A stretch of DNA of 64,000 bases from an uncultured Bacteroidales bacterium (GTDB lineage Bacteria > Bacteroidota > Bacteroidia > Bacteroidales > Paludibacteraceae), in contig ONBO01000003.1 of NCBI GenBank assembly GCA_900316125.1, forward strand, positions 418-64,417, given 5' to 3'. The notes under the pieces were generated by a model. The model worked only from the letters and a program-made list of their open reading frames with translations, had not been told where the DNA came from and searched no databases. How positions within the stretch are numbered: the stretch's first letter is position 1; each line of letters opens with the position of its first letter. The translations under genes and the position numbers were made by a program. Positions 4,467 through 32,164 of this stretch are shown in pieces.

Positions 4467-4471
4467 TATTT

Positions 4472-6867: not shown

Positions 6868-6897
6868 CCTCAATGCAAATTTATCTTACTACAGATA

Positions 6898-8439
6898 CTA
6901 CTTAACCATAACCTTCACAGCCTCATCACCTACTTTTACTACATACACACCCGATGCAGGCACTGGGTTACCAACTGGCAGACCTGCTGTGTTGTACACT
7001 CTTATATCTGATGGATCTTTCCCATTAACAGTAATCAACTTCTCACTTATAGAGATTGCATCCTTTATATTCTCTGAGGTGCTTTCATTTACATTCACCA
7101 GATCTTCTATGCATTTAAAATTAGAGGAATCAAAATAGTTCCAACCATCCGCTATCATATAATCAACAAGACTGGCACAAGGCACATAAACTTCAACATC
7201 ACTGCCCACATTTACAAACACATCGTTCGATGTTATAGTCGGAGGCACATCGGCACGACAAATAATTCGTTTAAGACTTATACAACCAAAGAAGGCTTCT
7301 TCGTTAATATTTGTAACACTACTTGGCAGATCTACGTTAAGCAACAAAAAACAATACATAAAGGTCTGAGATTCAACAGTTGAGACCCCATTGGGAATTA
7401 TCACATTAGTTAAATTGGTATTTCTAAAAGCACCACTTCCTATAGCTGTAATACAGTCAGGAATAATTATATTCGAAAGTTTAGAACATATATCAAAAGC
7501 ATAATCGCCTATTGACTTCACCGTATTGGGAATTTCTATTGATGTTAGTCCACTCCTGCTAAACGCAGCAGGCCCAATAGATTTAATGCCCATAGGGATT
7601 GTTGTATTTTTACAACCTGACACTAATGACAGGTTTGATTTTTTTATTATAGCATTACAATTATCTCTAGAATCATAAATAATGTTATTTGGATCAACGC
7701 TTATCGATGTTAATCCAGAGCACGCAAATGCTCCTTGACCTATCTCTACAATATTTTCAGAAATGTTTATTGAAGACAATCGTGACCCTCTAAATGCTGA
7801 TACGCCAATAGAAGTAACACTATTAGGGACTGTTACTGTTTCCAACTTTTCGCAACACCAAAAAGCACTATCCCCAATACTTGTAACCCCTTCAGGAATC
7901 TCTACAGTTGTCAACTCATAACAATTACCAATCGCATGTTTTCCTATTGACTTTACACTATTGGGTATTTTCACAGATGGTATGTTAAAACAGTCACTGA
8001 AAGCGTAATCATTTATTTTTTCTACTCCTTGTGGAATTTCTATTGGGCTTAACAAATCACAGCATTTAAAAAAGGCACTATCTCCAATTGAAGTTACACT
8101 ACTGGGAATATTTAAAGATTTAACATTGTAGCATGACGCAAACGCAGAATTACCTATCGATGTTATACCATTACTTATTGTAACCTTTGTTATGCCTTCT
8201 CTACCCTTACATGCATTATCACCAATGGTCTTAACACCGTATGTTTTACCATCGTAGTTTACAACAACTGGGATTGTAACCTCACCCTCATAATCTTTGC
8301 CCTTGACCGACACTATTGTGGCATACTTGCCATCCTCTGATGAATAGCCAATGCCATCAACCTCAAAATTTGTCACAGCGGCAACATCAAATGAAACCGC
8401 CAATAACACGCACACAAAAAAAGGTCTAAATCTTTTCAT
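6898..8439 (-). CDS. BspA-like leucine-rich-repeat surface protein with T9SS C-terminal sorting domain
   Basis: 513 aa with a signal peptide. It has about 14 repeats of the (I/V)P..V..IG..AF..C..L pattern. The tail VYNTAGLPVG...GVYVVKVGDEAVKVMVK is CTD-like. Confidence 0.8.
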   Translation of the reverse strand: MKRFRPFFVCVLLAVSFDVAAVTNFEVDGIGYSSEDGKYATIVSVKGKDYEGEVTIPVVVNYDGKTYGVKTIGDNACKGREGITKVTISNGITSIGNSAFASCYNVKSLNIPSSVTSIGDSAFFKCCDLLSPIEIPQGVEKINDYAFSDCFNIPSVKIPNSVKSIGKHAIGNCYELTTVEIPEGVTSIGDSAFWCCEKLETVTVPNSVTSIGVSAFRGSRLSSINISENIVEIGQGAFACSGLTSISVDPNNIIYDSRDNCNAIIKKSNLSLVSGCKNTTIPMGIKSIGPAAFSRSGLTSIEIPNTVKSIGDYAFDICSKLSNIIIPDCITAIGSGAFRNTNLTNVIIPNGVSTVESQTFMYCFLLLNVDLPSSVTNINEEAFFGCISLKRIICRADVPPTITSNDVFVNVGSDVEVYVPCASLVDYMIADGWNYFDSSNFKCIEDLVNVNESTSENIKDAISISEKLITVNGKDPSDIRVYNTAGLPVGNPVPASGVYVVKVGDEAVKVMVK

Positions 8440-8493
8440 AATTAATTGATAATTAAATTAAAACATTGTAATTAAAGCGAATAAAATTGACAC

Positions 8494-8722
8494 AAAAAAA
8501 GGCGAGACCTCAAAGTTCACTCTATCCATCTTGAGGTTCTAGCAAAACCTTACACTGAATAAAGCAACATGAAGCCTACGCCGTATGTAAAGCCCATGGC
8601 AAAAAGCCACAGGCACAATTACATACCCGTAGGCATTCATTGTCGCAACTATCCGTCAGTGTATTGAAAATTTGCTAGATTCCAAGATGCCGGACTGCGC
8701 GTCAACAAACGCCTAATATGTC
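8494..8722 (-). ncRNA. Candidate ~225-nt structured sRNA (rod-like imperfect hairpin with its own promoter and intrinsic terminator); identity unknown, possibly a 6S-like architecture
   Basis: A TACTTTTG -7 box sits at 8728-8735 (minus), with TTTG 19 nt upstream. About 59 bp of nested pairing spans 8527-8689, with a UUUUU apical loop. Several G-U pairs form only on the minus strand. A terminator-like stem, CCTCAAG/TTTGAGG, is followed by seven T (8494-8500). Confidence 0.5.
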
Positions 8723-8771
8723 GTGTACAAAAGTATGAAAAAAAATCCAACAAACAAAGGCCTCACCCCTT

Positions 8772-8803
8772 TTTGTATTTCATACTAATTTTTATTACTT
8801 TTG
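8772..8803 (+). promoter_or_regulatory. trp operon promoter (-33 TTTG / -7 TACTTTTG)
   Basis: TTTG is at 8772-8775. After a 20-nt spacer, TACTTTTG is at 8796-8803. The trpB ATG is at 8836. Confidence 0.5.
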
Positions 8804-8835
8804 CGGGTCAAAAATAATAAACTCATCTTAATTCA

Positions 8836-10041
8836 ATGAGAGATTTCCAGCAGACAGACCAGAATGGTTTTTACGGCTCATTTGGTGGGGCGTACATTCC
8901 AGAGATATTGTACAAGACGGTAGAGAATCTTAAAGAGAGCTACCTTAGTGTGATAGAGAGCGAATCCTTTAAAAAGGAGTACCACGCACTACTTAAAGAC
9001 TACGTGGGGCGTCCGAGCCCGCTCTACTACGCTAAGCGCATGAGTGAGAAGTATGGATGTCAGCTCTACCTGAAGAGGGAGGACTTGAACCATACCGGCG
9101 CACATAAGATAAACAACGCCATAGGTCAGGCATTGCTTGCAAAAAGGTTAGGCAAGAAACGCATAATTGCAGAGACGGGAGCAGGACAGCATGGTGTGGC
9201 AACCGCTACTGTATGCGCCCTGATGAACATGCCATGCCGTGTGTATATGGGTGCGCTTGACGTGGAGCGCCAGCACGTTAACGTGGAGCGTATGCGTATG
9301 CTTGGAGCAGAGGTGTTTCCTGTTCAGAGCGGCAACAAAACCCTGAAGGACGCAACTAACGAGGCCATCAGGGACTGGTGCTGCCACCCTGCAGACACAT
9401 TCTACATAATAGGTTCAACAGTAGGCCCTCACCCCTACCCCGATATGGTGGCACGCCTGCAAAGCGTTATATCAGAGGAGATAAAGTGGCAGCTTGAGGA
9501 GCACATAGGCCGTGACTATCCAGACTACATACTGGCATGCGTTGGAGGCGGAAGCAACGCCGCAGGTGCCATATACCACTTCCTAAACAATGAGAAAGTG
9601 CGCATTGTGCTTGCTGAAGCTGGCGGACTGGGCATGGAGACAGACAAGACCGCCGCATCGCTGCAGATAGGCACAACCGGCATACTGCACGGAAGCCGTA
9701 TAAAACTTATGCAGACCGCCGATGGGCAGATTGTGGAGCCATATTCAATATCGGCGGGACTTGACTACCCTGGCACAGGCCCTCTGCACTGCAACCTCTA
9801 TGAAACAGGTAGAGCCAAAGTGCTTGCTGTTAATGATGATGAGGCTCTGCAGGCTGCATTTGAGCTCACAAGGCTTGAGGGCATAATTCCGGCACTCGAA
9901 AGCAGCCATGCCCTTGCCCTGCTACCAAAAATGAAATTCAAAAAAGATGATGTGGTGGTTTTGAACGTAAGCGGGCGCGGTGACAAAGACCTTAACACAT
10001 ATCTAGCACATAAAGATGAAATAGACTATGACAAAATTTAA
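8836..10041 (+). CDS. trpB: Tryptophan synthase beta chain
   Basis: 401 aa. It has the PLP-lysine region ([12 protein letters not shown]) and GGGSNA. It is the first gene of the operon. Confidence 0.93.
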
Positions 10042-16952: not shown

Positions 16953-17228
16953 TTACTTGCTAACTTTCTCAATAAAAGTTTTTGCAGGCTTGAATGCAGG
17001 AATTGAGTGAGCAGGAATATTGATGGTTGTGTTCTTTGAAATATTACGTGCAACCTTGGCAGCGCGCTCTTTAACAATGAAGCTACCAAAACCTCTCAGA
17101 TAAACATTCTCTTTAGCCTCAAGAGACTTCTTAACCTCTTCCATGAAAGACTCCACCACCTGCATAACAGCAACTTTATCAATGCCGGTGCTATTGGAAA
17201 TTTCGTTTACAATTTCAGCTTTTGTCAT
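16953..17228 (-). CDS. hup: DNA-binding protein HU
   Basis: 91 aa. MTKAEIVNEIS...LRGFGSF...R.ARN matches the HU/IHF fold signature. Confidence 0.93.
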   Translation of the reverse strand: MTKAEIVNEISNSTGIDKVAVMQVVESFMEEVKKSLEAKENVYLRGFGSFIVKERAAKVARNISKNTTINIPAHSIPAFKPAKTFIEKVSK

Positions 17229-17318: not shown

Positions 17319-20300
17319 TTAATATTTTTTGAATTTACCAGCTTTTACTCGCTTATCGCTGGAATATACAATATTATATATAAACACGCCTCTCTTCTCT
17401 TCATTATAGAGATATCCTTCAGCACACGGAGCGCATATATCCTCACAGTTAGGGTCAACAACAGGAACTTTGGCTATACGCTCTATGGCTCCAGCAAGAT
17501 TCATAATAACCACACTTATATTCTCACATCTTGTGGTGAAACGCCACCCTTCAGTATCAGAGCCTGTGATGCAGACATCATTCTCAGAAGGGACTGTGGT
17601 AGGGTCAAAATCAGCAGAAACAAAATGCACTGTGTACTTATCCTTATGCACGCAATCCTGCGCCACCACCTGCACCTCAACTGCAATCTCTGTTTCAGAT
17701 TCACTTCTCACAACCATCACACCTTGGCCGCTCTCCATAGCAGTAAATGTTACAAGTTCCTTATCCACCGTACTGGCTCCAAACGGCAGCTTTATTTCAT
17801 AGTCATGCACATCAGGGCTGAAATTATCCAGAATTACATCCTTGTAATATATAGCCTGAAGTTTTGTGTTATCAGACAGTTTGATAGATGTTTTAATCAC
17901 ATAGTTTGCTGTTTTTCCGCTTGCCGCCACCGATGTCAGGGTTATGCTCTCACGTGTAACCTGACGCATTGACACTTTGGCGTTAGGGCTCAAGGTCTTG
18001 TACTCCACGTCTTTCACCAGTGGTATAAAAGAGGAGTCTGTATAGGCCTCATGCTCTACAGTGTAAACTGGACGGTCCGGATCAAAACCCTCTATGGTCT
18101 TACCAAACACCCTTAAATCACTGAGTCTGGCCTCATCATCAGGCTGTATCAGAAAATCAACCACATACTCATTAGGCACACCCACCTCAGAGACCACATC
18201 AAGCACCACATTAACATGAGATGCATCAACCACTGTGATTTTTGGAGTTACAGTCTGGGAGCCTGGAGGCGTAAGGTCATAAGTAATTTCCACATCGGTC
18301 GATGTCCCGTATGGGAGCTTCACTTCATATTCGTTCACATTCGGGTCAAACCCTTCAACCTTTATACCGTTGTAATATATCATATCAAGCGTACCCACAT
18401 CACTTGGCACAGGTGATATTTCCACCGTGTAGTTTTTATCATTACTACCGTCAGCGGATTTTACCGTGATATTATAAACAGAGCTTTCTCCCTTTATCTC
18501 AGTGGTTACTGTCTGGTCCTCCGCAAACTTTACTGCCTCTATCACTGGTATTTTATACTCTCCAGCTTTACGTTTCACATAGTAATAGGTACTATCCGGC
18601 TTAAAGTCAAGTTCGTGTCCTATTACCTTGATGTTTTTAAGATCAGCCACATCTTTATCACCCTGCAAAAATAATATTTTGTATGAGACAGACTCTTTGA
18701 GTGACTCGGAAACAGCGGTAACAGTAACAGACAATCCTTCCTTACTCTCCGCATAATCCACATTGCATATCTGGCTTGACGATTTACCTATCACCGTTAC
18801 GTCTGGTATATAGCGGACACCTGCCGGCAGTTCATACTCATACAGGTGTTTCTCAGGATCAAAACCTTCAAGAGGCTTACCATCAACCATAATTGATTTT
18901 ACGCCCACATTATCAGTCTTGCTTCTGGTAACATTAAGGTTGTAGTCTGTATATGTGCCATCCTCAGCATAACTTCTTATGCTTATATGATGCACATTAT
19001 CCTTATACTCACCATAAGTAATGTCATACATCTGGTCCTCCACCTCGCCTTCTATCTCTATCAAAGGTGTTCCAGTGCTTTCTGAGCTTATTATTGCCAT
19101 GACATCAGTACCGTTTATTACAGCCTTTTTACCATCCACTGTAATTTTAGCAATCTTAGAACTGTACTTAAACCTAATGTAATCAACTATGAGTTGGGAA
19201 CAGAGGTCATAGCTAACTGGATCAAATCCATTTTTATAATATGGAAAATCTTTAACACTGTTATACTTTGCACTGTTGACAATTATATTAAGCTGGCTTG
19301 GATTCTTGAATTTACCTGTTATTGGTACACTCTTAACCTTCCATGTGTCATTATATTCATAATCCTTAAAAGAGTATGTCTTAGTGCCACTGTCATCTGT
19401 CAGATAACAATCCATGTGAATGTAGTTATCGTCGATGCCTATATAGTCCTTGTTGTTTGAGACTGGATTGTATCTCATCTCAATGGCATCAGGTGTATTA
19501 TGGAACGGTATGCCTCCTGAGATCTTTACAGTGGTGTAACTGGCCGCCTTAAAATCAACCGCTATATCACCTAAAGTCATAAGGCCAGGGAAACGGCCAG
19601 CCAAAAACCAATAATTACGTACCGTTTTTAGAGTAACCTGACCTTCTCCCTTTTCAATAAGGTATTTGGTGTTAAATCGTCCGTAGGAGCTTTCCACATC
19701 AGCAGGGACAACCCAGCCCTTGGGTTTATCTGTTTTCTTCTCTTCTGAATGCATACATTTAGTCCACTCATCAAACTCACCATTAGGTATCTCATCATTC
19801 TCATAGTGCAGGTATAAGTCATATCTGGCGGGACCGAGTTTACCTGAACCTCCAGTTTCAAACCTTACATGGTTGTTTTCAGAGATGGTCTTATTAAAGG
19901 GGACATCAGCAACCGCTTCAATGCTTTTGGGAGCCCTCTTTACATTTATTATGTACTTGAATTTATCTGGTCTGAAATTTTCAATCGGCTTACCATCTAC
20001 AACAATGCCTTTAATTGCATTGTAAGATTTATGTCTGTTAAAATGGAGGGTGTATCTCACATTTTCCACACCTTTCTGATTTGATATGACATCCAAAAAA
20101 GCATGACCATTATCAGCCGTTGACAGAACTACAGACTGGACATCATAACTCTTTACATACCTCACAACCAACGAGTCTGACATATTTGTTTCAACGTTAT
20201 ATTCAAACACATTAGGATTAAAGTTTTCAACTTCACTGCCATTCACGTTTATGGATTTAAGACGGTTATTCTTACCCGTATAATCATGAACATACCTTAG

Positions 20301-22112
20301 TGTGTAGGTTTTCAAAGAGCCGCTCTTTGATGTCACCATCAGTGATGTGGAATTCTCATACGGACGGTCAACTATCTTAACCGTGGATTCGTCGCACCTT
20401 CTTTGACAAGAGATAACTCTGTTACTGCCATATTCCTCATACATTATATTGTATCTCACAACATCCGGGTCAAAGTCATCTATTATCTCTCCATTAATCA
20501 TTATCTGGTCCAGCCTGTTTTCTGTAGGGTCATCACACTCACTCGGAGCATCAGAGTGTTTGACGCTGAACATTATCCTATATTCACGTGGTAGCTTGGC
20601 ACCAACGGCCGACACTGTAATAGTAGAGACTTCTGACACATCCCTGCTGTCAACAACAACGGTCTGCATACCTTCAGGATACGCAGACTCGTATGTTATC
20701 TTTTGGGCTCCTGTAGTTCCTTCTGGCAGTTCCACTCTGTATATATTTTTTGAAGGGGCGAAATCTTTTATAGGCTCTCCATTGATAAAGATGTTTTTTA
20801 GTGTGGTGTCATCAAACTCCTTAACTCTGAAGTTTATAGTGTACGTGGCACTTATGTCCGCATCCTGGGCGTGTGTAACTATTTTAAGAATTCCAGGCAC
20901 CTTAAACTCCCCTATTTCATAACTCTGATTTTCGTTTGCCTTTTCCACCTCTATCTTTGGTAGTGACGTCCCGTATGGCAGTTCCACCTCATAATCAGTT
21001 ATATAAGAGTTGAAGCCTGGAATTTCCACCCCATTTACTTTAATGGATTTCACATACGGGCTGTTATCAGTCATTGACACAAAGTAGATATTATACGTAG
21101 TGGTGGAGCTACCATCCTCTGCTCTTACTGTTATGGTTGTGGCTCCTTGGTCTTTGGGAGTGTAGTTAATGGAGATTTCATCACCTGAAAGAAGACGTCC
21201 GCTACGGTAGCAAGTTATCTTTGGCAGTTTGTCGTCAGCTACAGAATAGTAGTATTCATATTTGTCCTTTTGGAACTTAGGATAGGCAAAACCGTCAAAA
21301 CGCAGTTCATCAATTTTTGATGAATAAATGAGACTAATGTCATCTACCAATAGTTTGCTGGTCTTTGAGAAATCCGTATCTTCACGTTTGTTTGGATAGT
21401 TGCCAACGCAAAGAATTATATTCATTTTCTCAGGCCTCTCATTTGTCATATATTTTATAGGTATTTTTATTAAAGACCATTCAGGATAGTCTTCTGCACT
21501 CTTCAGCCAGCCTTCAGCCACCTGCACGGCATTACCGCTTGGTGTGCTGCAGGTGTTACCGTCTGAGGTGCGGCAAATGTCAGACTCCTCATCAGTATGT
21601 GACGAACTTATGCAACTGCCAGCTTTGGCCTTATACTTACTGTTATGGGCCGTACCCTTCCATGAGTAGTACATAAGGTTCATTTTCTCACCATTAGGGG
21701 CAATACGTTTTACCCACACAGCCATAGTGTCAGGACGAGCCGTCCATGATATACCGCCATCTGTACCGCCAGAGCCTGTATCAACAGGATCTCTCCATGT
21801 TCCGTAATCAGACCACGGAGTACCAAGTGTAATCCATGACGGCGCCACACTAGTAAAGCCCGCTGCACCCACCTTTTTTGACTGTAGTTCCACAGCATAG
21901 CTACCAGTATGCGAATCAGATGTTCGCCTGCCTATTGCAACTTTACAAAGTGTTTGAGAAATATTTGACAGGTTCCATACGTCCGGCTGCGGTTCTCCAT
22001 CAAAAGAGCCCTTACCCCAACTTTCAAAATTGCTGTTTTGCAACTGGTAGTTGGCAGAATATGCCATAGAGGCTATTGCACTTAACAGTAGTATAAATAA
22101 TGACTTTCTCAT
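17319..22112 (-). CDS. Giant surface protein, 1597 aa: two PCMD-like domains, about 10 cadherin-like beta-sandwich modules and a Cys-rich CTD-like tail
   Basis: It has a signal peptide (MRKSLFILLLSAIASMAYS). The N-terminal NSNFESWG...ISWTARPD domain recurs mid-protein (IPNGEFDEWTK). Repeats follow the pattern L..I.VNG..I.GF.P....Y.V.LP.G. It is a paralog of the adjacent 3097-aa gene. Confidence 0.8.
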   Translation of the reverse strand: MRKSLFILLLSAIASMAYSANYQLQNSNFESWGKGSFDGEPQPDVWNLSNISQTLCKVAIGRRTSDSHTGSYAVELQSKKVGAAGFTSVAPSWITLGTPWSDYGTWRDPVDTGSGGTDGGISWTARPDTMAVWVKRIAPNGEKMNLMYYSWKGTAHNSKYKAKAGSCISSSHTDEESDICRTSDGNTCSTPSGNAVQVAEGWLKSAEDYPEWSLIKIPIKYMTNERPEKMNIILCVGNYPNKREDTDFSKTSKLLVDDISLIYSSKIDELRFDGFAYPKFQKDKYEYYYSVADDKLPKITCYRSGRLLSGDEISINYTPKDQGATTITVRAEDGSSTTTYNIYFVSMTDNSPYVKSIKVNGVEIPGFNSYITDYEVELPYGTSLPKIEVEKANENQSYEIGEFKVPGILKIVTHAQDADISATYTINFRVKEFDDTTLKNIFINGEPIKDFAPSKNIYRVELPEGTTGAQKITYESAYPEGMQTVVVDSRDVSEVSTITVSAVGAKLPREYRIMFSVKHSDAPSECDDPTENRLDQIMINGEIIDDFDPDVVRYNIMYEEYGSNRVISCQRRCDESTVKIVDRPYENSTSLMVTSKSGSLKTYTLRYVHDYTGKNNRLKSINVNGSEVENFNPNVFEYNVETNMSDSLVVRYVKSYDVQSVVLSTADNGHAFLDVISNQKGVENVRYTLHFNRHKSYNAIKGIVVDGKPIENFRPDKFKYIINVKRAPKSIEAVADVPFNKTISENNHVRFETGGSGKLGPARYDLYLHYENDEIPNGEFDEWTKCMHSEEKKTDKPKGWVVPADVESSYGRFNTKYLIEKGEGQVTLKTVRNYWFLAGRFPGLMTLGDIAVDFKAASYTTVKISGGIPFHNTPDAIEMRYNPVSNNKDYIGIDDNYIHMDCYLTDDSGTKTYSFKDYEYNDTWKVKSVPITGKFKNPSQLNIIVNSAKYNSVKDFPYYKNGFDPVSYDLCSQLIVDYIRFKYSSKIAKITVDGKKAVINGTDVMAIISSESTGTPLIEIEGEVEDQMYDITYGEYKDNVHHISIRSYAEDGTYTDYNLNVTRSKTDNVGVKSIMVDGKPLEGFDPEKHLYEYELPAGVRYIPDVTVIGKSSSQICNVDYAESKEGLSVTVTAVSESLKESVSYKILFLQGDKDVADLKNIKVIGHELDFKPDSTYYYVKRKAGEYKIPVIEAVKFAEDQTVTTEIKGESSVYNITVKSADGSNDKNYTVEISPVPSDVGTLDMIYYNGIKVEGFDPNVNEYEVKLPYGTSTDVEITYDLTPPGSQTVTPKITVVDASHVNVVLDVVSEVGVPNEYVVDFLIQPDDEARLSDLRVFGKTIEGFDPDRPVYTVEHEAYTDSSFIPLVKDVEYKTLSPNAKVSMRQVTRESITLTSVAASGKTANYVIKTSIKLSDNTKLQAIYYKDVILDNFSPDVHDYEIKLPFGASTVDKELVTFTAMESGQGVMVVRSESETEIAVEVQVVAQDCVHKDKYTVHFVSADFDPTTVPSENDVCITGSDTEGWRFTTRCENISVVIMNLAGAIERIAKVPVVDPNCEDICAPCAEGYLYNEEKRGVFIYNIVYSSDKRVKAGKFKKY

Positions 22113-22231
22113 AACTAACTTTTTTACATAATGGATAAAGTTAGTTAATAGTTATTAACACACCAGATATTAAATGTTAATAATTTTAATATTTAACATA
22201 TTGAAGAATCTTTTAACATAACCAGACTGTA

Positions 22232-22266
22232 AAAACAACAAAAGCGGAGACCTGAGCCCCCGCTTC
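22232..22266 (-). terminator. Terminator of the 3097-aa gene
   Basis: On the minus strand, AAGCGG (22265-22260) pairs with CCGCTT (22247-22242) across a 12-nt loop. A TTTTGTTGTTTTT tract follows. Confidence 0.5.
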
Positions 22267-22289
22267 TGTAATAAGTTTGTAACAAAACA

Positions 22290-25200
22290 CTACTTACATC
22301 TAATCTTACCTGTAAGCACTCGCTTCTTCTGTGCATACAGGAAGTTGTAGGTTACAACCTGGTTCTGCTCGCCCTTGAATATGTAACCCTCTGCAAGAGG
22401 ACTGCAAATATCCTCGCAGTTAGGATCTACAGTAGGAAGTTCTACTATGCCAAGGAATCTACCACTAAGGTCTGTAAGAATTACATTGACATTCTTGCAG
22501 CGTGTGGTGAACTTCCAGCTACCGTCAGGTGTACTTGTCAGGCAAACGTCAGCCTGAGTAGGCTCTGCAGTCGGGTCGAATTCATCAGGTACAAAGTGGA
22601 TGGTATAGATAGCGTAGCTTTTACCATCCTGAGCCATAACCTGAAGCTGCACGTCAAGATTATCCTTAACAACCATCACTGTCTGTCCAGGTTCCTGAGT
22701 CTCGTATGTAACCAGCTCCTTGTCAATAGTAGTTGCACCAAACGGAATCTTTATGGTGTAATCAAGAATGTCAGGCTCAAATCCGCTTACAAGAACATCC
22801 TTATAGTATATAGCCTTAAGTGCTGTGTTGTCTGATATGCGAATTGTGGTTTGTATTACATAGTGAACGAAATCACCGCTTGGGGCCGTTACCTTTACAA
22901 TAACGCTCTCACGAGTATTTTGCATAATCTCTACAACTTCATTTTCACTCATCTTAACATACTCAACATCCTTTGGATATGGAAGCAGTGAAGAGTCACT
23001 GTAAGCCTCAAGTTCAAATGAGTAGTTATAAATATCAGGGTTGAAGCCCTCAACCGTCTTACCAAACACCTTGAGGTCTTTCAGGCGGTTCTCCTTGTCA
23101 GGGGCTACTGTGAATATTACAGTATACTCATTCTCATCACCGCTCTCAGTTGTTACAGTAATAATAGACTTCCAACCTGTATGAACGTAACTAGAAGTAA
23201 CTACACTTGCTGTCTGATGTCCAGGTACAGAGAAGTCGTATGTAACAACTGGTGCAACCACTGTGCCATACGGAAGCTCAACCTCATACTCATTTTTATC
23301 AGGAGCAAACTCATCAATTGCGTTACCGTTATAGTAAATCATATCAAGTGTGGTGATATCACAAGGCAGCACACTGAATGTTATTGAATAGGTTTCAGTT
23401 GTAACACCGTCAGCGGCTGTAACCTTGATGGTTGACGTGCCTGTCACACTCTCTGTATATGAAGTCTCAACAGTCTGCTCTTCCTCAGCCTTCTCATAAT
23501 CTATGGCCGGAACCTTAGTGGTGCCGAACGGAAGCTTAACCTCATAGAAGAACACATCGCCGTCAAATGAAGGGATAAGCTGACGCTCATCACCAAGAGT
23601 TATGCTCTTAAGTGTGGCGTTATGTGAAGGCTCTTTGGTATAGCTTACTGTGTATGTGCGGCTATCCATGTTCTGAGCTGTTACCTTCACTGAGAAGAAG
23701 AGGCTGTCAGCTGCCACGCTCTTTTCTATGGTCTGGTACTCATCACCCTCTACGTATGTAACGTCAGGAATGTACTTGGTTCCTAGAGGTATCTCTATAG
23801 AGTAATCAAGAGTCTCAGGATCAAAGCCTGGAACAGTCTTACCACCTGACATAAGGTCTGCCAGTGCGGTGTTGGTTGATTTCTCAACATTAAGATTAAC
23901 CTTATATGTCTGCTTAACCTCAACATCCTGAGCTGAAACCACAAGGTCAACACCACCTTCAAACGGAACCTTCTCAACGATCTGCCACTCTGTTCCCTTT
24001 TGATAATCAACAACTACCTTGGTAATGTCTGTGCCAAGAGGCAGGGTTACGGTGTACTCAAGTGTCTCCTTAGCAAAGTTCTCAACCTCATCGCCGTTAA
24101 CATATATCATGTTAAGAGAGGCGTCTTTGCTGAGCACAATTGTATAGTTAAGAGTATAGGTCTTGGTGTTAATACCGTTGCCGGCTTTAACCTCAAGTGC
24201 AACTGTTGTACCATCCGCTATCTTGGTTACAGTCTGTTCATCATCACCCTTGGTGTATGTAATCTCAGGAATTGCAGTAACACCTACAGGCAGTGTAAAA
24301 TTATATTCTGTAACATCAGGAGCAAATCCGCTAATCTCTGTACCGTCAGCGTATATCATTGCCAAGTCACAGTTTGCAGACTTAGCCACGCTGAAGTGAA
24401 TTACGTAGCGGCTGCTGTTCTGTCTGTCTTGTGAGGTAACATTGATTTCAGTATCACCCTCCACACTCGATGTTATGATTACAATATCCTGACCAGCGTC
24501 ACCCATTACAGCCTCAATGGCAGGCAATGTCTCAGAGCCGTATGGCAGCTCAACTGAGTACTCATACTTTGTAGGTTCAAATCCTTCTATTGAGACACCG
24601 TCAAGTTTGATATCAGCCAGATCAGAACCAGATGCCAAGTGGCGTACAAAAGTTACGATGTACTCTTGTGAGTTTCCAGCCTCAGCAATTACAGTTATTT
24701 TATACTTATCACCGTCAAGTACGGCAGATACCCTCTGATTTGGCTCGCCAAGATCAACTGTTATAACAGGGTCATCCTTACCGGCTGGAACATCTACAGA
24801 ATATTCAAACTTCTCAGGCTCAAAGTCTGGTAGTGGAACGTAGTTGGCAGATATGCCGCTAAGCAGCGCATTGTCAGAGAGTGCAACTGTGAAGCTGAGC
24901 ACGTATGTCTGCTCATCGCCGTTCTCAGCATTAACATTTACTGTGGTAGCATCAGAGATAGAGCCTACACTCATACCTAATGTCTGGCTGCTCTGTGCAC
25001 CAAATGCATATACTTCTGGCAGTTTTGTGGTACCTGCAGGAAGCTCAACTCTGTACTCTGTTACGGCAGGGTCAAAGCCTGGAACCTGAGCTCCGCCAAG
25101 AGTGATATCATTCAAGTTCACATTACCGTTTTTCTCTCTGTCAAGATTTACAATGTATGTAAGAGTGTTTCCGTTTGCAGCAGTTACTATGAACTGATAT

Positions 25201-28200
25201 GCAAGCAGAGCGTTATCAGGCATTAAGACAGAGCTCTCAAGAGTCTGCTCTGGCTCACCAAGCACAGGCTCCACAATCAGACCGTCTGTCTCACCTACTG
25301 TAATGTTGTACTCAGTTACCGCAGGGTCAAACTCAGCATAACTTGCACCGTTGACCATAATGGCAGAGAGTTTTGCATTATCACTCTTGCGGTTAGTGAA
25401 TCTCAATTTGTACTCATTCTCTGTCTCTGAAACTTTATTGCTAAGGTTCCATACAAGAGAGTCACTGTTAACTACAACCGCCATTGAGTCTTCTGCAAAC
25501 GCCCTGTTGTAGTTTACAAGAGCGACTTCCTCTATAGCCTTGTCAAACTCATACTCATATACATCCTGTCTGAATGGGACTGGAGCAGCAGCGTCAAGCA
25601 CTTCAATGCCTTCAAGCTGTGATGTGGTCTCAGCACTTGGGTCCACGCTGAACTTAATGTTGTAGGTCAGTTCATTCTCGCCGTCGGCCGATGTAACCTT
25701 TATAGAAGTCATACCATTTACGCCACCCTCTGTAAGAACTACAGACTGTTTGTCTGATATCTTATTGTAAGATATGTGAGGCATGGCCACTGTGCCAGAC
25801 ATCAGTGCAACGGCATAATCTGTCTTGTCCGCCTCAAAGTCAATAGCATAGCCTTCAATTTCAATGTTATTAAGAGCAGCCTTACTGTAATCAGTCTCCA
25901 CAACATTTATAGTGTAGGTCTTGCTGTCACCGTTCTCAGCAGTTGAAACCACTGTGATAACACCATCAGCAAATGATGTCTGAATTGTCTGATATGTTGA
26001 TTTACCCTTAACACTAATATTCTTAATGAAGCGTGTGCCGGCAGGAACAGCCACTGTGTACTCAGTCTGACCGTCATTCAAGCCAACGCTTACGCCGTCA
26101 ACCATAACACTCTTAAGACCTGTCTCAGCAGACTTTTCTCTTGTTATTGTAAGTGTGTAATCAGTGTAGCTCAGATTCTCAGCGTAGCTCACTATGCTTA
26201 CAGTACGTACCCCGTCAACCTCTGTGTCATAGTCAATACGATACATCTGGTCATCAACCTCACCAGTAATCTTGATGTCAGGCAGACCAATATACTCACT
26301 GTCTATTGTAGCGGTGGCAGTTGTTCCACTGATTGATGCGGCCTCACCATTTACAGTTATGGCGGAAATCTTAGAGTTATATAAGAAACTTATGTAATCA
26401 ACATATACCTCGGCCATGTTAAGAGCTGTAAGACCCTTCCAAGTGTTACCGTTAGGGTTAATGGCAATATTCATCTTGGTTGGGTGAACATCTCCAAGCT
26501 CCAGCTGCTTAGTGTACTCAGCATAACCAGAGGTCTCATTCTCAATGAGAATATCTTTGTTAATTTCCGTTCCACCTTCAAAGAAACGTACGGCAAACAG
26601 AGCACCGTCATTAGCCTTGGACTTATAATTATAACGGAGTTTTACAGCATCAGGAGTGTTACGGAATGTTATACCGCCAGAGAATCCAGTTTCAGACTGT
26701 GCAGCCACATTCATATTACAACTTACATTTCCTAGAGTGAGCACGGCTGGGATCTCACCTGCAAGTGCACACTGGTATGTTTTTGTATTAACACCCACTA
26801 CGGTATTGCTTTCCTTGGAGATCTCGTAACCAGCCTTACCGCTTCTAACGCCAGCACAAACAAGAGCTGCCGCTGCTGACACTTTCTGTTCACCAACAAC
26901 ATCCGCCGGACAGTTCCAGCCTACAGGCTTAACTGCAGATGATACAACTGTGTATTTAGGCTTAGTCCACTCTGTGAAGTGGTTGTTAGGAATAACATCA
27001 TCAGAGTAGTAGAAGTATAAGTCATAAACAACACCTGCAAGGCCGTCCTTCTCAAGAGTTTCAAACCTTACGTGGTTTTGGTTGTTTATGGTCTTGTTAA
27101 CATCGCTGCCGTCAGTCATCTCAGCAACAACAGAAGCTGGAGTTGATGTCACATCAATTACATACTTGGTCTTATATGGGTCAAAGCCTGAAATCTCCAC
27201 ATCATCAATCTTAATTGTTGAAGCAACATTATAAGGCAGTGCGTATGTATAGTTTATAGTGTATGTCACATCAGCAACACCATCTTGGTTAGATTTAAGA
27301 GTAATAACACTCTTACCCTGCTCAGATGTTGTAACCACTGCGGTCTGAAGCTCATAATTCTTAACAAATGTTACATCTGGTGTTTCATTAGAATAGAGCT
27401 CAACATTATATTCAAACTTGTCAGGTGCAAAACCGCTCACAAGCGTCTCATTAACCATAAGAGCCTTGAGCACGTTCTCACCTACAGGAGCCTTAGTACT
27501 GAAGTTTAAAGTGTAAACTGTCTCAGAGCCGTCTTCTGCGGTAACTGTAACTGTAGAAGCAGTGTTGTAGCTGTTATCCCTAACTGTTACGAGCGATGCT
27601 GCGTCAGTGCGCACAAATGAGATATCGCCGCGCGTCTCATCAGCCTCAAGCTCAATATTATAGGTAAGAGTCTCTGGGTCAAAGCCTTCAACCATATCGC
27701 CTCCCACTTGGAGTTCATCAAGTGTGCTTACTGAAGATTTCTCCCTTTCAAATGTGATTGTGTAATCAGCGGTGGTCTCACCATCCTCTGCTGTAACCTT
27801 AATGGCAACCGGCTCGCTAAACTTGCCGTATGAAATAAGGTATGTCTGACGCTCGTTAACGCCTACGCAGTTAACAGCAGGGAAATCTGTGCTTGTAATA
27901 GGCAGCTGAACAGTGTAGTCAAACTTGTCAGGAGCAAAGCCCTCAACAGATACAAACTTATTACTTGAGCTGTCATATACCTGCAAATCAGAGAGAAGCG
28001 CGTTATTATCAAGAATAGCCTTGAAGGTTACGGTATACTGCTGCTCGCCACCATCCTCTGCAAGCACCTTTATAACAGCCTTTTTACTGTCTTTGTCAAG
28101 CAGAACTTTCTGAGTATCAGCGCCTCTTGCGTATGTAACAGTTGGAACATAACCACTTGCAACCTCATAGACATAGTCCAGAACACCAGGTGAGAAGTTC

Positions 28201-31200
28201 TCAATGGTAACACCGTCAACCTTCAAATCAGAGAGTGAAGCATTGCTGTCCGCCACAGGTATGAACTTCACAGAATAGGTGGCTTTGTCAACACCGTTAT
28301 CTGCTGTTACATAGAAGTTTGCATTTCCATATAAAGCAGGAAGCACAGCGTCAACACGTGATGAAGCGTCTGCCTTAACAGGCTGTATAGAAGGAAGCTC
28401 AGTGGCATCCTTGCCTACATAGTAAGTATAGTCATACTTGTCAGCAGAGAAGCCCTCAATGGAAACACCGTCTATCTTCAAATCAGAGAGGAGTGCAACA
28501 TCTGACTTTTCTGTGGAGAAGTTAAGGTAGTATGCCTTAAATCTACCACCGGCAGACATAACTGAGATGGTGGTTACACCATTCACACCACCCTCTCTAA
28601 GCTCTACGGTCTGGCCATCATTGCCTTTTACGTATGTAATTGCTGGCAGCACTGTGGTACCCTTAGCAAGAGTTATATCGTATTCTGTCTTATCTGGAGC
28701 AAAACCCTCTACGGTCACACCATCCACGCTAATGTCAGCGAGGTCACAATTACCGCCTGCTGCGCTAAAGATGTTTATGGTGTAAATATTAACTGCACCC
28801 TCTTCAGGTATAACCTTAATGGTTGCCGCACCTGCACCATGAGGCTTTGTAATAACAACTTCCTGATTACCGTCTTTCTCAACTGTAATAGCAGGGCAAG
28901 TTGCCTCAGATGCTGAAAGTGTATAATCGTATGAATAAACATCAGGGGTGAAACCTTCAAGTGCCACACCACCTATGAATATGTTCTTAAGATTTGCGCT
29001 CTCAGACTTCTGTACGTAGAAGTTTATAGTGTAAGTATTCTCATCACCGTCTTCAGCCACAACCCTGATGGTGGTAGCGCCCTTAACGCCACCCTTGGTG
29101 ATATAAACCCTCTGGTACTCATCACCCTGTGTGCAGCTAATTTCAGGCAGCACGGTGGTTCCGGCTGGAAGTTCATAATCATAACTGAACTTGTTTGGAG
29201 CAAAGCCCTCAATGGTGGAGCCTGCAACCTTCAAATCCTGAAGCAAAGCATTATTAGATTTCTCAACACTGAATGAGAGTGAATATACTGTAACATCACC
29301 GCTCTGGGCCTTAACGGTAATACGTGTAACACCATTCACACCACCCTCTATCTTGGTAATCTTCTGTAACTCATCATACGGAGTGTATGTGATCTCAGGC
29401 AGAGTCTTGGTACCGCGAGGCAGTACAATGAAATACTCTGTCTTTTCAGGCATAAATCCCTCAATGCTTACTCCGCCAACCTTAATATCCTTAAGAGTTG
29501 AGTTTGAAGCCTGGGTCACACTGAATGTAATGCTATATGTAGTTACAGAACCATCCTGAGCGGTGACCACAATCTTGGTAATACCGTTAACGCCACCATA
29601 TATAGGCTTTACAGTCTGGTAATCATCACCTTGAATCCAAGTAATCTCAGGCAGGGCTGTAGTTCCCACTGGAAGTACGTATGAGTAAGAAGTAACGTCT
29701 GCTGAGAAACCAGGCAATGTAACTCCACCAACTTTAAGATCAGCGAGTTTTGAATTGCTTGATTTTGTAAGCGGGAAGCTGATTCTGTATATTGAAGTGT
29801 TTATGTTATTCTGTGCCTTAACGGTAATTTTTGTGGTACCGTCAACACCGCCATCCTCTTTGGTGACTGTCTGATAGCTATCACCCTGAGTCCATGTCAC
29901 AGCAGGTACTGATGTGGTGCCGAGTGGAAGCGGATATGTATAGTTAAGAGTAGCAGGAGCAAAACCGCTAATGGTAACGCCGCCCACCTTCAAATCCTGA
30001 AGATATGAGTAGGCTGACTCTGTAACATTATATGATATTTTATAAACGCGGCTCGATGTAGCCTCTGGTGCAGAAACCGTAATTGTAGATGTCTCTGAAA
30101 TATCACGGCTGTCAACAACTACAGTCTGAGCGCCCTTAGGATATGCAGAAACGTATGTAATCTGCTGAGCGCCAGTGGTTCCTACAGGAACATTAACCTT
30201 ATAAATTGTCTTGGTTGGAGAGAATCCCTCAATAGAAACTCCATTCACCAAGATATCTTTCAATGTGGTGTCACTGAGGCCCTTGACAGTGAATTTAATA
30301 TTGTAAACTACAGAGTAATCTGTATTCTCAGCATATACTGTAACCTTAGCTGTGCCAGGTATTGTGTATGGCGCAATGTTTACTGTCTGCTTAGGATTTG
30401 CCTTTACAACCTCTATATTAGGATTCTCTGTGGTGCCGTATGGCAGAGCCACAGTGTAGTCAGAGACGTATGCATTAAATCCTGCAAGTGCAGTTCCGTT
30501 AACCTTAATTGATGTTGGATACTGGTTTGTATCACGTTTTGAAACAAAATTTATAGTGTAAGTGCTTGTAGAACTGCCGTCCTCAGCCTTTACGGTAATC
30601 ACTGTAGGCGCACCGTCAATCTGGCCGTAAGAGATATTAATCTCACTGCCAGAGAGCTGACGTTCACTACGGTAGCATGTAATAACAGGCATACTTCCAT
30701 CAACCTCGTATGTGTATTCATACTTGTCCTTGTTGAACTTGGAGTATGACATTCCGTTAAATCTCAAATCATATATCTGAGATGAGTAGATAAGTGTAAC
30801 ATCATCAGCATAAAGTTTTGAGGAAGTAAACAGACCACTGTTAGCTCGCTTATTAGGATAGTTGGAAGCAGAGAGAATAATATTCATCTTCTGAGGTATG
30901 CTTCCATTAAAATACTTGATTGGAACCTTTATGAATGTCCAGTTATTGTATGTAGTCTTGGTTCTAAGCCAGCCCTCAGCCACTTGAACTGCGTTACCAG
31001 AAGGGCGTCCGCACTCATTTCCGTCTGTTGAGTAGCATATATCAGATTCCTCATCATTCTGTGTCACCTCTGTACAGCCTCTATCCTTATTTTTGTACTT
31101 AGTGTTAGTAGAAGTTCCCGTCCAAGAGTAGTAGACGATGTTCATATCCTCATTGCCAGCTGACTCACGTATAATCCACACTCCCAGGGTATCAGGACGT

Positions 31201-31583
31201 GCGGTCCAACTGATACCACCGTATGTACCAGCTGTGGCAGAGCCTGTTGAGAGGCCCTTAAGGTATGCCCACGGAGTTCCGAGTGTTACCCACGATGGAG
31301 ACACCTCTGTTATACCAAAGGCACCTACCTCCTTATCCTGACAAAGTACAGAATAGGAGCCTGAGTGTGCTCTTGTAGAACGTTCACCGATGCAGAAATC
31401 AAAACCGGCCTGAGACACATTGGAAAGATTCCATGTGGCAGGTTGAGGTTCACCGTTCCAAGTTGAAGGCCAACTTTCAAAATTTGAGTTTGGAACCTGA
31501 TACTGCGCATTAGCGGTAGCTACTGAAAGTAGCATGACAGCTGCAGTAATTTTTGTTAAAAATTTGCAAAAAATTTGTTTCAT
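22290..31583 (-). CDS. Giant surface protein, ~3097 aa: two PCMD-like domains, about 28 cadherin-like beta-sandwich modules and a Cys-rich CTD-like tail
   Basis: I place the start at ATG 31583 (MKQIFCKFLTKITAAVMLLSVATANAQ is a good signal peptide), whereas the listed ORF starts at GTG 31607. I counted 28 occurrences of the (E/S/P)GF.P....Y motif. The N- and C-terminal domains are clearly homologous to those of the 1597-aa neighbour. Confidence 0.8.
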   Translation of the reverse strand: MKQIFCKFLTKITAAVMLLSVATANAQYQVPNSNFESWPSTWNGEPQPATWNLSNVSQAGFDFCIGERSTRAHSGSYSVLCQDKEVGAFGITEVSPSWVTLGTPWAYLKGLSTGSATAGTYGGISWTARPDTLGVWIIRESAGNEDMNIVYYSWTGTSTNTKYKNKDRGCTEVTQNDEESDICYSTDGNECGRPSGNAVQVAEGWLRTKTTYNNWTFIKVPIKYFNGSIPQKMNIILSASNYPNKRANSGLFTSSKLYADDVTLIYSSQIYDLRFNGMSYSKFNKDKYEYTYEVDGSMPVITCYRSERQLSGSEINISYGQIDGAPTVITVKAEDGSSTSTYTINFVSKRDTNQYPTSIKVNGTALAGFNAYVSDYTVALPYGTTENPNIEVVKANPKQTVNIAPYTIPGTAKVTVYAENTDYSVVYNIKFTVKGLSDTTLKDILVNGVSIEGFSPTKTIYKVNVPVGTTGAQQITYVSAYPKGAQTVVVDSRDISETSTITVSAPEATSSRVYKISYNVTESAYSYLQDLKVGGVTISGFAPATLNYTYPLPLGTTSVPAVTWTQGDSYQTVTKEDGGVDGTTKITVKAQNNINTSIYRISFPLTKSSNSKLADLKVGGVTLPGFSADVTSYSYVLPVGTTALPEITWIQGDDYQTVKPIYGGVNGITKIVVTAQDGSVTTYSITFSVTQASNSTLKDIKVGGVSIEGFMPEKTEYFIVLPRGTKTLPEITYTPYDELQKITKIEGGVNGVTRITVKAQSGDVTVYSLSFSVEKSNNALLQDLKVAGSTIEGFAPNKFSYDYELPAGTTVLPEISCTQGDEYQRVYITKGGVKGATTIRVVAEDGDENTYTINFYVQKSESANLKNIFIGGVALEGFTPDVYSYDYTLSASEATCPAITVEKDGNQEVVITKPHGAGAATIKVIPEEGAVNIYTINIFSAAGGNCDLADISVDGVTVEGFAPDKTEYDITLAKGTTVLPAITYVKGNDGQTVELREGGVNGVTTISVMSAGGRFKAYYLNFSTEKSDVALLSDLKIDGVSIEGFSADKYDYTYYVGKDATELPSIQPVKADASSRVDAVLPALYGNANFYVTADNGVDKATYSVKFIPVADSNASLSDLKVDGVTIENFSPGVLDYVYEVASGYVPTVTYARGADTQKVLLDKDSKKAVIKVLAEDGGEQQYTVTFKAILDNNALLSDLQVYDSSSNKFVSVEGFAPDKFDYTVQLPITSTDFPAVNCVGVNERQTYLISYGKFSEPVAIKVTAEDGETTADYTITFEREKSSVSTLDELQVGGDMVEGFDPETLTYNIELEADETRGDISFVRTDAASLVTVRDNSYNTASTVTVTAEDGSETVYTLNFSTKAPVGENVLKALMVNETLVSGFAPDKFEYNVELYSNETPDVTFVKNYELQTAVVTTSEQGKSVITLKSNQDGVADVTYTINYTYALPYNVASTIKIDDVEISGFDPYKTKYVIDVTSTPASVVAEMTDGSDVNKTINNQNHVRFETLEKDGLAGVVYDLYFYYSDDVIPNNHFTEWTKPKYTVVSSAVKPVGWNCPADVVGEQKVSAAAALVCAGVRSGKAGYEISKESNTVVGVNTKTYQCALAGEIPAVLTLGNVSCNMNVAAQSETGFSGGITFRNTPDAVKLRYNYKSKANDGALFAVRFFEGGTEINKDILIENETSGYAEYTKQLELGDVHPTKMNIAINPNGNTWKGLTALNMAEVYVDYISFLYNSKISAITVNGEAASISGTTATATIDSEYIGLPDIKITGEVDDQMYRIDYDTEVDGVRTVSIVSYAENLSYTDYTLTITREKSAETGLKSVMVDGVSVGLNDGQTEYTVAVPAGTRFIKNISVKGKSTYQTIQTSFADGVITVVSTAENGDSKTYTINVVETDYSKAALNNIEIEGYAIDFEADKTDYAVALMSGTVAMPHISYNKISDKQSVVLTEGGVNGMTSIKVTSADGENELTYNIKFSVDPSAETTSQLEGIEVLDAAAPVPFRQDVYEYEFDKAIEEVALVNYNRAFAEDSMAVVVNSDSLVWNLSNKVSETENEYKLRFTNRKSDNAKLSAIMVNGASYAEFDPAVTEYNITVGETDGLIVEPVLGEPEQTLESSVLMPDNALLAYQFIVTAANGNTLTYIVNLDREKNGNVNLNDITLGGAQVPGFDPAVTEYRVELPAGTTKLPEVYAFGAQSSQTLGMSVGSISDATTVNVNAENGDEQTYVLSFTVALSDNALLSGISANYVPLPDFEPEKFEYSVDVPAGKDDPVITVDLGEPNQRVSAVLDGDKYKITVIAEAGNSQEYIVTFVRHLASGSDLADIKLDGVSIEGFEPTKYEYSVELPYGSETLPAIEAVMGDAGQDIVIITSSVEGDTEINVTSQDRQNSSRYVIHFSVAKSANCDLAMIYADGTEISGFAPDVTEYNFTLPVGVTAIPEITYTKGDDEQTVTKIADGTTVALEVKAGNGINTKTYTLNYTIVLSKDASLNMIYVNGDEVENFAKETLEYTVTLPLGTDITKVVVDYQKGTEWQIVEKVPFEGGVDLVVSAQDVEVKQTYKVNLNVEKSTNTALADLMSGGKTVPGFDPETLDYSIEIPLGTKYIPDVTYVEGDEYQTIEKSVAADSLFFSVKVTAQNMDSRTYTVSYTKEPSHNATLKSITLGDERQLIPSFDGDVFFYEVKLPFGTTKVPAIDYEKAEEEQTVETSYTESVTGTSTIKVTAADGVTTETYSITFSVLPCDITTLDMIYYNGNAIDEFAPDKNEYEVELPYGTVVAPVVTYDFSVPGHQTASVVTSSYVHTGWKSIITVTTESGDENEYTVIFTVAPDKENRLKDLKVFGKTVEGFNPDIYNYSFELEAYSDSSLLPYPKDVEYVKMSENEVVEIMQNTRESVIVKVTAPSGDFVHYVIQTTIRISDNTALKAIYYKDVLVSGFEPDILDYTIKIPFGATTIDKELVTYETQEPGQTVMVVKDNLDVQLQVMAQDGKSYAIYTIHFVPDEFDPTAEPTQADVCLTSTPDGSWKFTTRCKNVNVILTDLSGRFLGIVELPTVDPNCEDICSPLAEGYIFKGEQNQVVTYNFLYAQKKRVLTGKIRCK

Positions 31584-31651
31584 TTTCTCATTAATTAAGA
31601 TTAGCACTATCCCTGTTACACATTATTATATAAAAGGGTATAGTTAACGCG

Positions 31652-31659: not shown

Positions 31660-31742
31660 GTTAAATTTGATTTGCTAATCAAAGTTGAAATGTTAAAAAT
31701 TTTATGAGGTACTATTTTTTAACATTTCACGTTACAAAATGA

Positions 31743-31870: not shown

Positions 31871-32164
31871 TTATACTGTAGCTTCTATATTCCAGACAAA
31901 CGCCCTCACGCCCACGTCTGTGTTACGGAGGTCAAGTTTGTGAACTGTTTTTAGTAGTTCAGGAACCTTTTCATCTTCCACCACTGTTATAACCGCAGAG
32001 TTCATCTCAGGCCAGCAGTGCGTACCGCGGCGCGGCTCGCCTCCGTTGGTTCCCCTACCCTGCACCTGCTCAAAGAGCGTGAATCCATTTATTTTAAGCT
32101 CATCAAGCAAATACTCCACACGCTCAGTGTTCGCCTGATTAAAAATTATCATTACTGCTTTCAT
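31871..32164 (-). CDS. Small PII/GlnB-like transporter-associated protein (PG0541-like family)
   Basis: 97 aa with the motif VQGRGTNGG..RRGTH and a beta-alpha-beta pattern. Its start is 1 nt after the RND permease stop. Confidence 0.55.
   Translation of the reverse strand: MKAVMIIFNQANTERVEYLLDELKINGFTLFEQVQGRGTNGGEPRRGTHCWPEMNSAVITVVEDEKVPELLKTVHKLDLRNTDVGVRAFVWNIEATV

Follow-up and report, generated by a model that had tools for sequence, protein, structure and literature searches.

Two giant genes of one plan

We analyzed a 64,000-nucleotide stretch of the genome of an uncultured gut or rumen Bacteroidales bacterium of the family Paludibacteraceae (contig ONBO01000003.1, positions 418 to 64,417 of the forward strand), hereafter called the window, which carries two adjacent giant genes, A and B. 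All positions given below for these genes are those of the window, and all of their features lie on the reverse strand. Translation of the open reading frames (ORFs) gives 1597 aa for gene A (17319–22112). Gene B extends over 22290–31607 when counted from a GTG codon; because a plausible signal peptide begins at the ATG at position 31583, we take this ATG as the likely start, which yields a protein of 3097 aa. A preliminary description of the locus, made by reading the sequence, had reported two such adjacent ORFs with the same plan, and they are present as described: each encodes a signal peptide, a domain resembling the PCMD family, an arm of repeated modules, a second PCMD-like domain, a second arm and a C-terminal domain. 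The motifs quoted there all lie at the expected places, namely NSNFESW at residue 26 of A and 40 of B, ISWTARPD at residues 121 and 132, and, in the second domain, IPNGEFDEWTK at residue 775 of A and IPNNHFTEWTK at residue 1539 of B. The relation between the two arms is the main subject of this report; the equality of the arms, the mirror-image indels and the hypervariable middle had gone unnoticed in the preliminary description.

The modules recur with a period of 84–85 aa in both proteins. A hidden Markov model (HMM) of the module, built from A and B together, tiles both almost without gaps and assigns 6+6 modules to A (12 in all) and 15+15 to B (30 in all). In gene A, arm 1 lies at 19821–21341 (residues 258–764) and arm 2 at 17625–19145 (residues 990–1496), the latter also being matched by the Pfam family PF12733 (Cadherin-like). 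Gene B carries its arms at 27015–30803 (arm 1) and 22596–26387 (arm 2), and two modules of arm 2 match the HMM weakly (independent E-value about 5e-3) yet fill the tiling. The proposal that the repeats are Cadherin-like modules is borne out by hmmscan, which gives PF12733 scores of 29.2 bits for A and 73 bits for B (E 2.9e-20 for the whole protein), both above the curated gathering cut-off of 24.2 bits. The repeat runs noticed earlier are thus real, whereas the counts given for them, about 10 and about 28, fall short of the tiling; the strict motif then used matches just 2 modules in A and 9 in B.

Comparison of the two proteins shows that the modules of A arm 1 correspond to modules 1–3 and 13–15 of B arm 1, and those of A arm 2 to modules 1–3 and 13–15 of B arm 2. 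Relative to B, A is therefore missing the nine modules at the centre of each arm. At the DNA level, repeats are at most 52 nt long, have 60–86% identity and are spaced at multiples of about 252 nt. That only such short DNA repeats are shared indicates that the module arrays are old, in agreement with the earlier statement that the modules have diverged at the DNA level and do not reflect recent slippage.

Arms of equal length and mirror-image changes

A search of the full library with the N-terminal domain returned 544 representative clusters. All relatives are annotated as "hypothetical protein" and stem from Paludibacteraceae or Prevotellaceae metagenome-assembled genomes (MAGs) and metagenomes, and the double plan is present in nearly all of them. 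Within the GTDB family to which the window belongs, the middle domain was found in 70 of 201 sampled genomes and in 13 of 33 genera; most of these genomes encode one intact ORF of about 3100–3300 aa without internal stops, and most carry the giant gene in single copy. The intact reading frames indicate that the genes are maintained and not decaying. Judged by this survey, the design of A and B is not rare and represents a large, unnamed family of Bacteroidales exported proteins. For some relatives, PF27200 appears in precomputed Pfam lists. No paper on the family was found in the literature searched on PCMD (PF13201) and on the type IX secretion system (T9SS) in combination with cadherin-like and rumen, and the earlier remark that this is not a characterized design holds for the literature searched.

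In a set of 177 complete relatives, the lengths of the two arms within one protein are tightly correlated (Pearson r = 0.978), with a difference below 0.75 module in 151 of them. The arms range from 6 to 26 modules, and the size classes comprise 6+6, 7+7, 9+9, 11+11, 15+15, 20+20 and 26+26. On a tree calculated from the non-repeat domains alone, 15+15 is the widespread state and size changes occur many times, each of them in both arms; independent contrasts on this tree give r = 0.94 (permutation p ≤ 1e-4). The main exceptions to arm equality carry an inserted GEVED domain and not extra modules, which explains the apparent 13+11 and 11+13 proteins, whose module count stays 11+11. In relative P0014, GEVED (PF20009) is located in arm 1 just before the middle domain. 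PF20009 is also found for P0015, P0017, P0034, P0028 and P0029 in precomputed Pfam lists, where its position is unmapped; the extra length lies in arm 1 of P0014, P0015, P0017 and P0034 and in arm 2 of P0028 and P0029.

A rare snapshot of arm growth in progress is provided by P0178 (4742 aa, 24+24). Each of its arms grew by 9 modules through a separate recent amplification of a 3-module block; module scores are 290–370 within an arm versus about 120 across arms. Gene conversion between the arms was considered and rejected, because the DNA repeats are short and old and the similarity matrix of arm 1 against arm 2 has no diagonal; it is also ruled out by P0178, where the new modules resemble their own arm only. 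On these sequence comparisons, gains and losses arise separately in each arm.

We then scored the register of the changes, that is, whether they fall at the same ordinal positions in the two arms (parallel) or at mirror positions (antiparallel). Gene A is uninformative in this respect, since its own deletion is symmetric. P0008 has lost modules 7, 9 and 11–14 of arm 1 and modules 2–7 of arm 2, corresponding to a mirror overlap of 5/6 versus 1/6 in the same order, and P0010 further lost modules 5 and 6 and modules 10 and 11 (mirror 2/2, same order 0/2). The amplification in P0178 involved modules 5–7 of arm 1 and 9–11 of arm 2 (mirror 3/3, same order 0/3). In P0137, finally, arm 1 retains four modules on the N side and two on the middle side, whereas arm 2 retains two on the middle side and four on the C side. 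For these four mirror events, the combined p is roughly 0.005. Such mirror-image changes suggest an antiparallel fold-back stalk that carries the middle domain at its tip.

Several points weigh against this reading. The indel test is post hoc, comprises four events and involves generic central modules of uncertain orthology, and the older size changes (11+11, 10+9, 20+20 and 26+26) mapped too noisily to be scored. Rate covariation among 41 proteins of the 15+15 class gives an anti-diagonal signal with p about 1e-4 after removal of one component, which is coarse, vanishes after removal of three components and is confounded by recombination of the central cassette described below; because of this confounding we do not count it as independent support. 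Moreover, we infer the pairing of the arms from evolution only, and cassette exchange can explain a variable middle without any fold-back.

Matched arms and mirror-image indels are predicted equally well if the chains are extended and the pairing occurs between molecules, either in antiparallel dimers or in a half-staggered polymer or lattice that forms an S-layer-like mesh or fibre. Arm 1 would then run along arm 2 of the next chain, and equal arms would be needed to keep the register. An S-layer-like role had indeed been put forward in the preliminary description, but we found no specific support for it. An extended antiparallel dimer must lie flat if both of its chains are anchored C-terminally to one surface; most genomes, moreover, have a single copy, no finding points to a lattice, and a lattice offers no obvious reason for variation centred on the middle domain. 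We consider intermolecular pairing rather unlikely.

The variation itself was mapped by comparison with the syntenic sister strain L003, in which the orthologue of B lies at 502–9816. The flanking genes of L003 are 94–100% identical in protein and about 92–97% in DNA, and B is 61% identical to its orthologue overall. At the ends of B, identity amounts to 69% in the N-terminal domain and 75% in the C-terminal domain. Along arm 1 it is 80–94% in modules 1–6 (91–94% in modules 3 and 4) and 45–52% in modules 10–15; along arm 2 it is 38–53% in modules 2–7 and 66–92% in modules 11–15. With the L003 orthologue, the middle domain of B shares 30–33% identity, whereas it shares 62% with its counterparts in 9+9 and 7+7 proteins from other lineages. 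A similar mosaic appears when gene A is compared with P0005; the comparison with P0004 gives the reverse pattern, in which the ends are divergent and the centre is identical. The graded identity, the likeness of middle domains across lineages and the mosaics of A together indicate that the central part of the gene acts like a cassette that is built around the middle domain and can be exchanged. These identity profiles characterize gene B, in comparison with its syntenic orthologue, as a recombination mosaic. Immediately upstream of B, the P-II gene is also unusually divergent from that of L003 (84% at the nucleotide level).

This distribution of conservation bears on a second alternative, a single-file extended stalk with lectin-like domains at half height and at the far N-terminal end, in which the equality of the arms would be due to history or to a spacing rule. 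Such a stalk is the default picture for repeat adhesins, and the domain order alone is compatible with it. However, the numbers of modules in the arms changed many times, always together, by separate events and at mirror positions, and the N-terminal domain and the adjoining modules 1–6 are far better conserved (69% and 80–94%) than the middle (30%), which is the opposite of what is expected for an exposed N-terminal tip. This arrangement therefore appears unlikely to us. Folding back of the chain would explain together the equal arms, the mirror indels and the position of the best-conserved arm modules beside the N-terminal domain.

PCMD-like domains, C-terminal domain and probable export

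The N-terminal PCMD-like domain of A (21342–22055, residues 20–257) is modelled by AlphaFold2 (AF2) as a beta-sandwich with a Cys-containing insert (predicted local distance difference test, pLDDT, 90.6), and that of B (30804–31508, residues 34–268 of the GTG frame) is part of the family alignment of this domain. The middle PCMD-like domains lie at 19146–19820 in A (residues 765–989, 225 aa), where the assignment comes from a profile-profile match to the N-terminal domain family, and at 26388–27014 in B (209 aa), where the domain is the most variable part of the protein. Between A and B, the N-terminal domains are 56% and the middle domains 28% identical. In pairwise BLAST, the likeness between N-terminal and middle domains is confined to the last strands; the family profiles of the two domains (29 and 28 sequences) align in hhalign over 200 columns with a probability of 99.65% and E 5e-25. 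Going by these profiles, the middle domain is an old diverged copy of the N-terminal one that is devoid of the roughly 45-residue Cys-containing insert.

In hmmscan, neither the whole proteins nor the four excised domains matched PF13201 (PCMD) directly, even at E ≤ 10, and PF12733 was the sole match in NCBIfam and Pfam scans of whole proteins and excised domains. Searches of PDB sequences with single domains and profiles returned nothing useful, the best match being a weak one of the N-terminal domain profile to 3hbz (E 0.3). Three relatives, P0219, P0234 and P0253, match the N-terminal domain of A at E 1e-29 to 1e-19 and match PF13201 over the same residues (E 1.9e-20, 9.6e-7 and 6.2e-5, respectively). 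Moreover, the top four Foldseek hits of the AF2 model of this domain are 4het, 3s30 (two chains) and 3hbz (E 6e-7 to 1e-6, template modelling (TM) score 0.51–0.57), followed by carbohydrate-binding modules (CBMs) of families 16, 61, 4 and 22 and by gingipain adhesin domains. The structures 4het (BT3745), 3s30 (BVU_0247) and 3hbz (BT_2081) represent solved PCMD (PF13201) proteins. For the N-terminal and the middle domain, the evidence of membership in the PCMD superfamily is indirect but consistent, and "PCMD-like" appears to be a fair label. The PCMD identity given in the preliminary description is thus upheld by intermediate sequences and by the fold of the AlphaFold model, but not by a direct PF13201 match.

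The PCMD proteins of Bacteroides represented by these structures share with A and B the beta-sandwich fold (Foldseek E about 1e-6, TM 0.56), the N(S/G)xFE(x)W start, the GGIxF..RPD motif and the link through intermediate sequences. They are about 250–340 aa long, contain one PCMD domain and often a calycin-like domain, and their function is only putative. In contrast, A and B carry the domain twice, with a Cys-containing insert in the N-terminal copy, and each copy heads a repeat arm. In the PDB, 4het, 3s30 and 3hbz are titled "putative glycoside hydrolase", and on this basis the PCMD-like domains could be taken for enzymes and the proteins for giant surface glycanases. Those titles are structural-genomics guesses, however; the next-best folds are non-catalytic CBMs and gingipain adhesin domains, and no catalytic family of Pfam or NCBIfam was matched anywhere in A or B, which leaves a glycanase hardly credible. 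The likeliest activity of the PCMD-like domains, judging from the fold of the AF2 model, is glycan binding and not catalysis.

The C-terminal domains of A (17322–17624, residues 1497–1597) and B (22293–22595) are 48% identical. The C-terminal 100 residues of A, which include a conserved Cys, are modelled as a seven-strand beta-sandwich (AF2 pLDDT 89.4) that resembles the C-terminal domains (CTDs) of T9SS cargo proteins. The CTDs of RgpB, RemA and NucA as well as PorZ are near the top of the Foldseek list, with E 0.04–0.2 and TM up to 0.66 on the target; in those structures, the RemA and NucA CTDs are bound to the T9SS translocon. A profile of the domain finds just the copies of A and B in their own genome. 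In hhalign, it aligns over 78 columns with type-B CTDs of the same genome (12 sequences; probability 54%, E 1.3e-4), versus 19 columns with type-A CTDs of this genome (18 sequences; probability 9.6%). A type-A reading of the domain was rejected, as the match to type-A CTDs is local and covers 19 columns. In a sample of 20 relatives, 4 match CHU_C (best 8e-4) and 2 weakly match the type-A CTD, and about 170 relatives carry the domain at their very C-terminal end.

The genome encodes a T9SS, with matches to SprA_N (2e-177) and GldM (7e-40), at least seven PorP/SprF genes and, as canonical cargo, at least 15 type-A and at least 12 type-B ORFs. On the contigs C52, C31, C38 and C30, several CHU_C cargo genes are each directly followed by a PorP/SprF gene. 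Both giant proteins also start with a putative signal peptide, judged by eye from the translation. In A it spans 22056–22112 (residues 1–19, MRKSLFILLLSAIASMAYS) and consists of a hydrophobic N-terminus without a Cys lipobox; in B it spans 31509–31583 and reads MKQIF...VATANA from the ATG, followed by Gln. The general traits of T9SS cargo are thus present in A and B, namely a putative Sec signal peptide, a C-terminus of CTD fold and a host with a T9SS.

Three findings count against export by this route. The T9SS CTD models (PF18962/TIGR04183 and PF13585 CHU_C/TIGR04131) have no direct match in A or B, the Foldseek E-values of the domain are weak, and no PorP/SprF match was found on the contig of the window (C34), so that the giant genes have no adjacent partner; such an adjacent gene is usual, but not universal, for type-B cargo. 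The same three findings favour the alternative that the domain is an ordinary Ig-like module and that the proteins are periplasmic, or released or retained by another route. Against this speak its extreme C-terminal place in about 170 relatives, the top ranks of T9SS CTD structures in the fold search, the nearly end-to-end alignment with the genome's type-B CTDs, the members that match CHU_C or Por_Secre_tail, and the full T9SS encoded by the genome, and we regard an ordinary Ig-like module as very unlikely. The C-terminal domain is probably a divergent T9SS sorting domain with type-B leanings, and the T9SS secretion envisaged in the preliminary description fits both the CTD-like fold and the T9SS-encoding genome.

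A proposed fibre and its genomic setting

We give a fold-back surface fibre, which is our best overall explanation of A and B, an even chance of being correct. According to this model, the Sec signal peptide would take each protein across the inner membrane, and the divergent C-terminal beta-sandwich would mediate passage through the T9SS and then retention at the cell surface. The two arms would pair in antiparallel orientation as the chain folds back on itself, so that the middle PCMD-like domain would be located at the far tip and the N-terminal domain back at the base beside the C-terminal anchor. The tip domain, and perhaps the base domain as well, may bind glycan, and the tip may be under diversifying pressure. 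The number of modules would set the reach; at roughly 4 nm per module, A would extend about 25 nm and B about 60 nm, and the two could be the short and the long form of one fibre, displayed on the same cell. Judging from the tree, gene A originated by a lineage-specific duplication and lost the central nine modules of either arm.

Conservation analysis of the locus showed that the A/B pair is present in L003 and in a further related locus, L004, and that L005 carries a single 9+9 gene at the same place. A bovine metagenome contig has the same locus in the order P-II, 3104 aa, 1607 aa, HU, RNase G and trp operon, and a more distant Paludibacteraceae MAG has a single 2107-aa gene (9+9) there. 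The pair in the relatives versus the single gene in the distant MAG indicates that the tandem pair arose at this conserved locus by a duplication specific to one lineage. Two further genomes of the sample also carry a long and a short gene in tandem (3163+2138 aa and 3156+2242 aa).

Giant T9SS-secreted adhesins with a Sec signal, many Ig-like repeats and a C-terminal sorting beta-sandwich are known from Flavobacterium johnsoniae, namely SprB and RemA. Like these, A and B are very large, carry Ig-like repeats and a C-terminal beta-sandwich, and come from a host with the T9SS core and PorP/SprF. We found no relationship in sequence that goes beyond the fold class, and A and B differ in a C-terminal domain that fits neither type A nor type B cleanly and in the lack of an adjacent sprF-like gene. 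To our knowledge, SprB and RemA have not been reported to possess a two-arm plan or arms of matched length.

A fold-back chain with a paired repeat stalk, a lectin-like tip and both ends at the base is seen in streptococcal antigen I/II (SpaP/P1, SspB). This serves as an analogy only, as antigen I/II is a Gram-positive protein of unrelated sequence with a sortase anchor, and its stalk pairs an alpha-helix with a polyproline helix, whereas the proposed stalk of A and B would consist of two files of beta-sandwich modules. In the arms of SMC and Rad50, two halves of one chain pair in antiparallel orientation, and indels in one half are matched in the other. The likeness is here restricted to the evolutionary rule, since SMC and Rad50 are intracellular coiled coils acting on DNA and are unrelated in sequence, fold and function. 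As far as we know, a matched-arm rule has so far been known mainly from coiled-coil proteins such as SMC. PF12733, in turn, is a generic module of many unrelated surface proteins and says nothing about the two-arm plan. Thus, as far as sequence and literature allow a comparison, PF12733, the PCMD superfamily and T9SS-type CTDs are known kinds, and the two-arm plan and the matched-arm rule appear to be new, no description of them having been found in the literature searched. We put at slightly less than even the chance that A and B represent a hitherto undescribed kind of fibre, which would combine a fold-back two-stranded beta-sandwich stalk with arms changing in step at facing positions, a hypervariable lectin-like tip that strains and species exchange as a cassette, and a tandem pair (15+15 and 6+6) of a long and a short version.

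Few genes of gut and rumen Bacteroidales are as poorly understood as those for giant repeat proteins, which tend to be written off as "hypothetical adhesins". Equal arms and mirrored changes provide a checkable rule. It restricts the possible three-dimensional arrangements even where no structure is at hand, and its prediction for electron microscopy is clear. If the chain folds back, the family would reveal a new design principle for stiff, length-adjustable stalks made from Ig-like modules. The middle PCMD-like domain would then meet the outside world, giving a first functional lead for the uncharacterized PCMD family, and the tip would be under strong diversifying pressure, for which phage, host antibody or the choice of substrate may be responsible. 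The tandem pair of a long and a short version offers a convenient natural experiment, and the 1597-aa protein is small enough to be expressed.

Between B and A, a terminator-like hairpin on the reverse strand (22238–22269; 14-bp stem with 7 GC pairs, followed by a T-run) starts 21 nt past the stop codon of B, which makes the earlier description of the genes as separately terminated reasonable for B. A pattern search of the window for ATGTTAA N5–30 TTAACAT gave exactly 2 matches versus 0.02 expected, one upstream of each giant gene at about 60–110 nt from its start codon: ATGTTAA...TTAACAT at 22174–22199, 5′ of gene A, and ATGTTAAAAA...TTTTTAACAT at 31690–31725, 5′ of gene B. The palindrome was also found upstream of orthologues in L003 (360–395), L004, L005 (9865–9891) and L006 (308–334), and it is kept even at the single-gene locus of L005; upstream of the A orthologue in L003, an exact-match search found none. 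Its positions and conservation make it look like a shared operator or promoter element. In a sigma-70 promoter scan, sites were no more numerous than in shuffled sequences; Bacteroidota use another consensus.

Downstream of gene A, an HU-family gene follows after 90 nt (16953–17228, reverse strand). No terminator-like site was found between the two, so that HU may be co-transcribed with A, and this gene order is conserved in L003 and L005. On the other side of the pair, a P-II-like gene of 97 aa (31871–32164, reverse strand) begins right after a resistance-nodulation-division (RND) pump gene and is separated from gene B by a 19-bp hairpin (31784–31743); the order RND pump, P-II and giant gene is conserved in L005. 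Elsewhere in the window, a 952-aa ORF (42110–44968, reverse strand) shows a weak match to the type-A T9SS CTD (PF18962, E 9.8e-5, below the cut-off).

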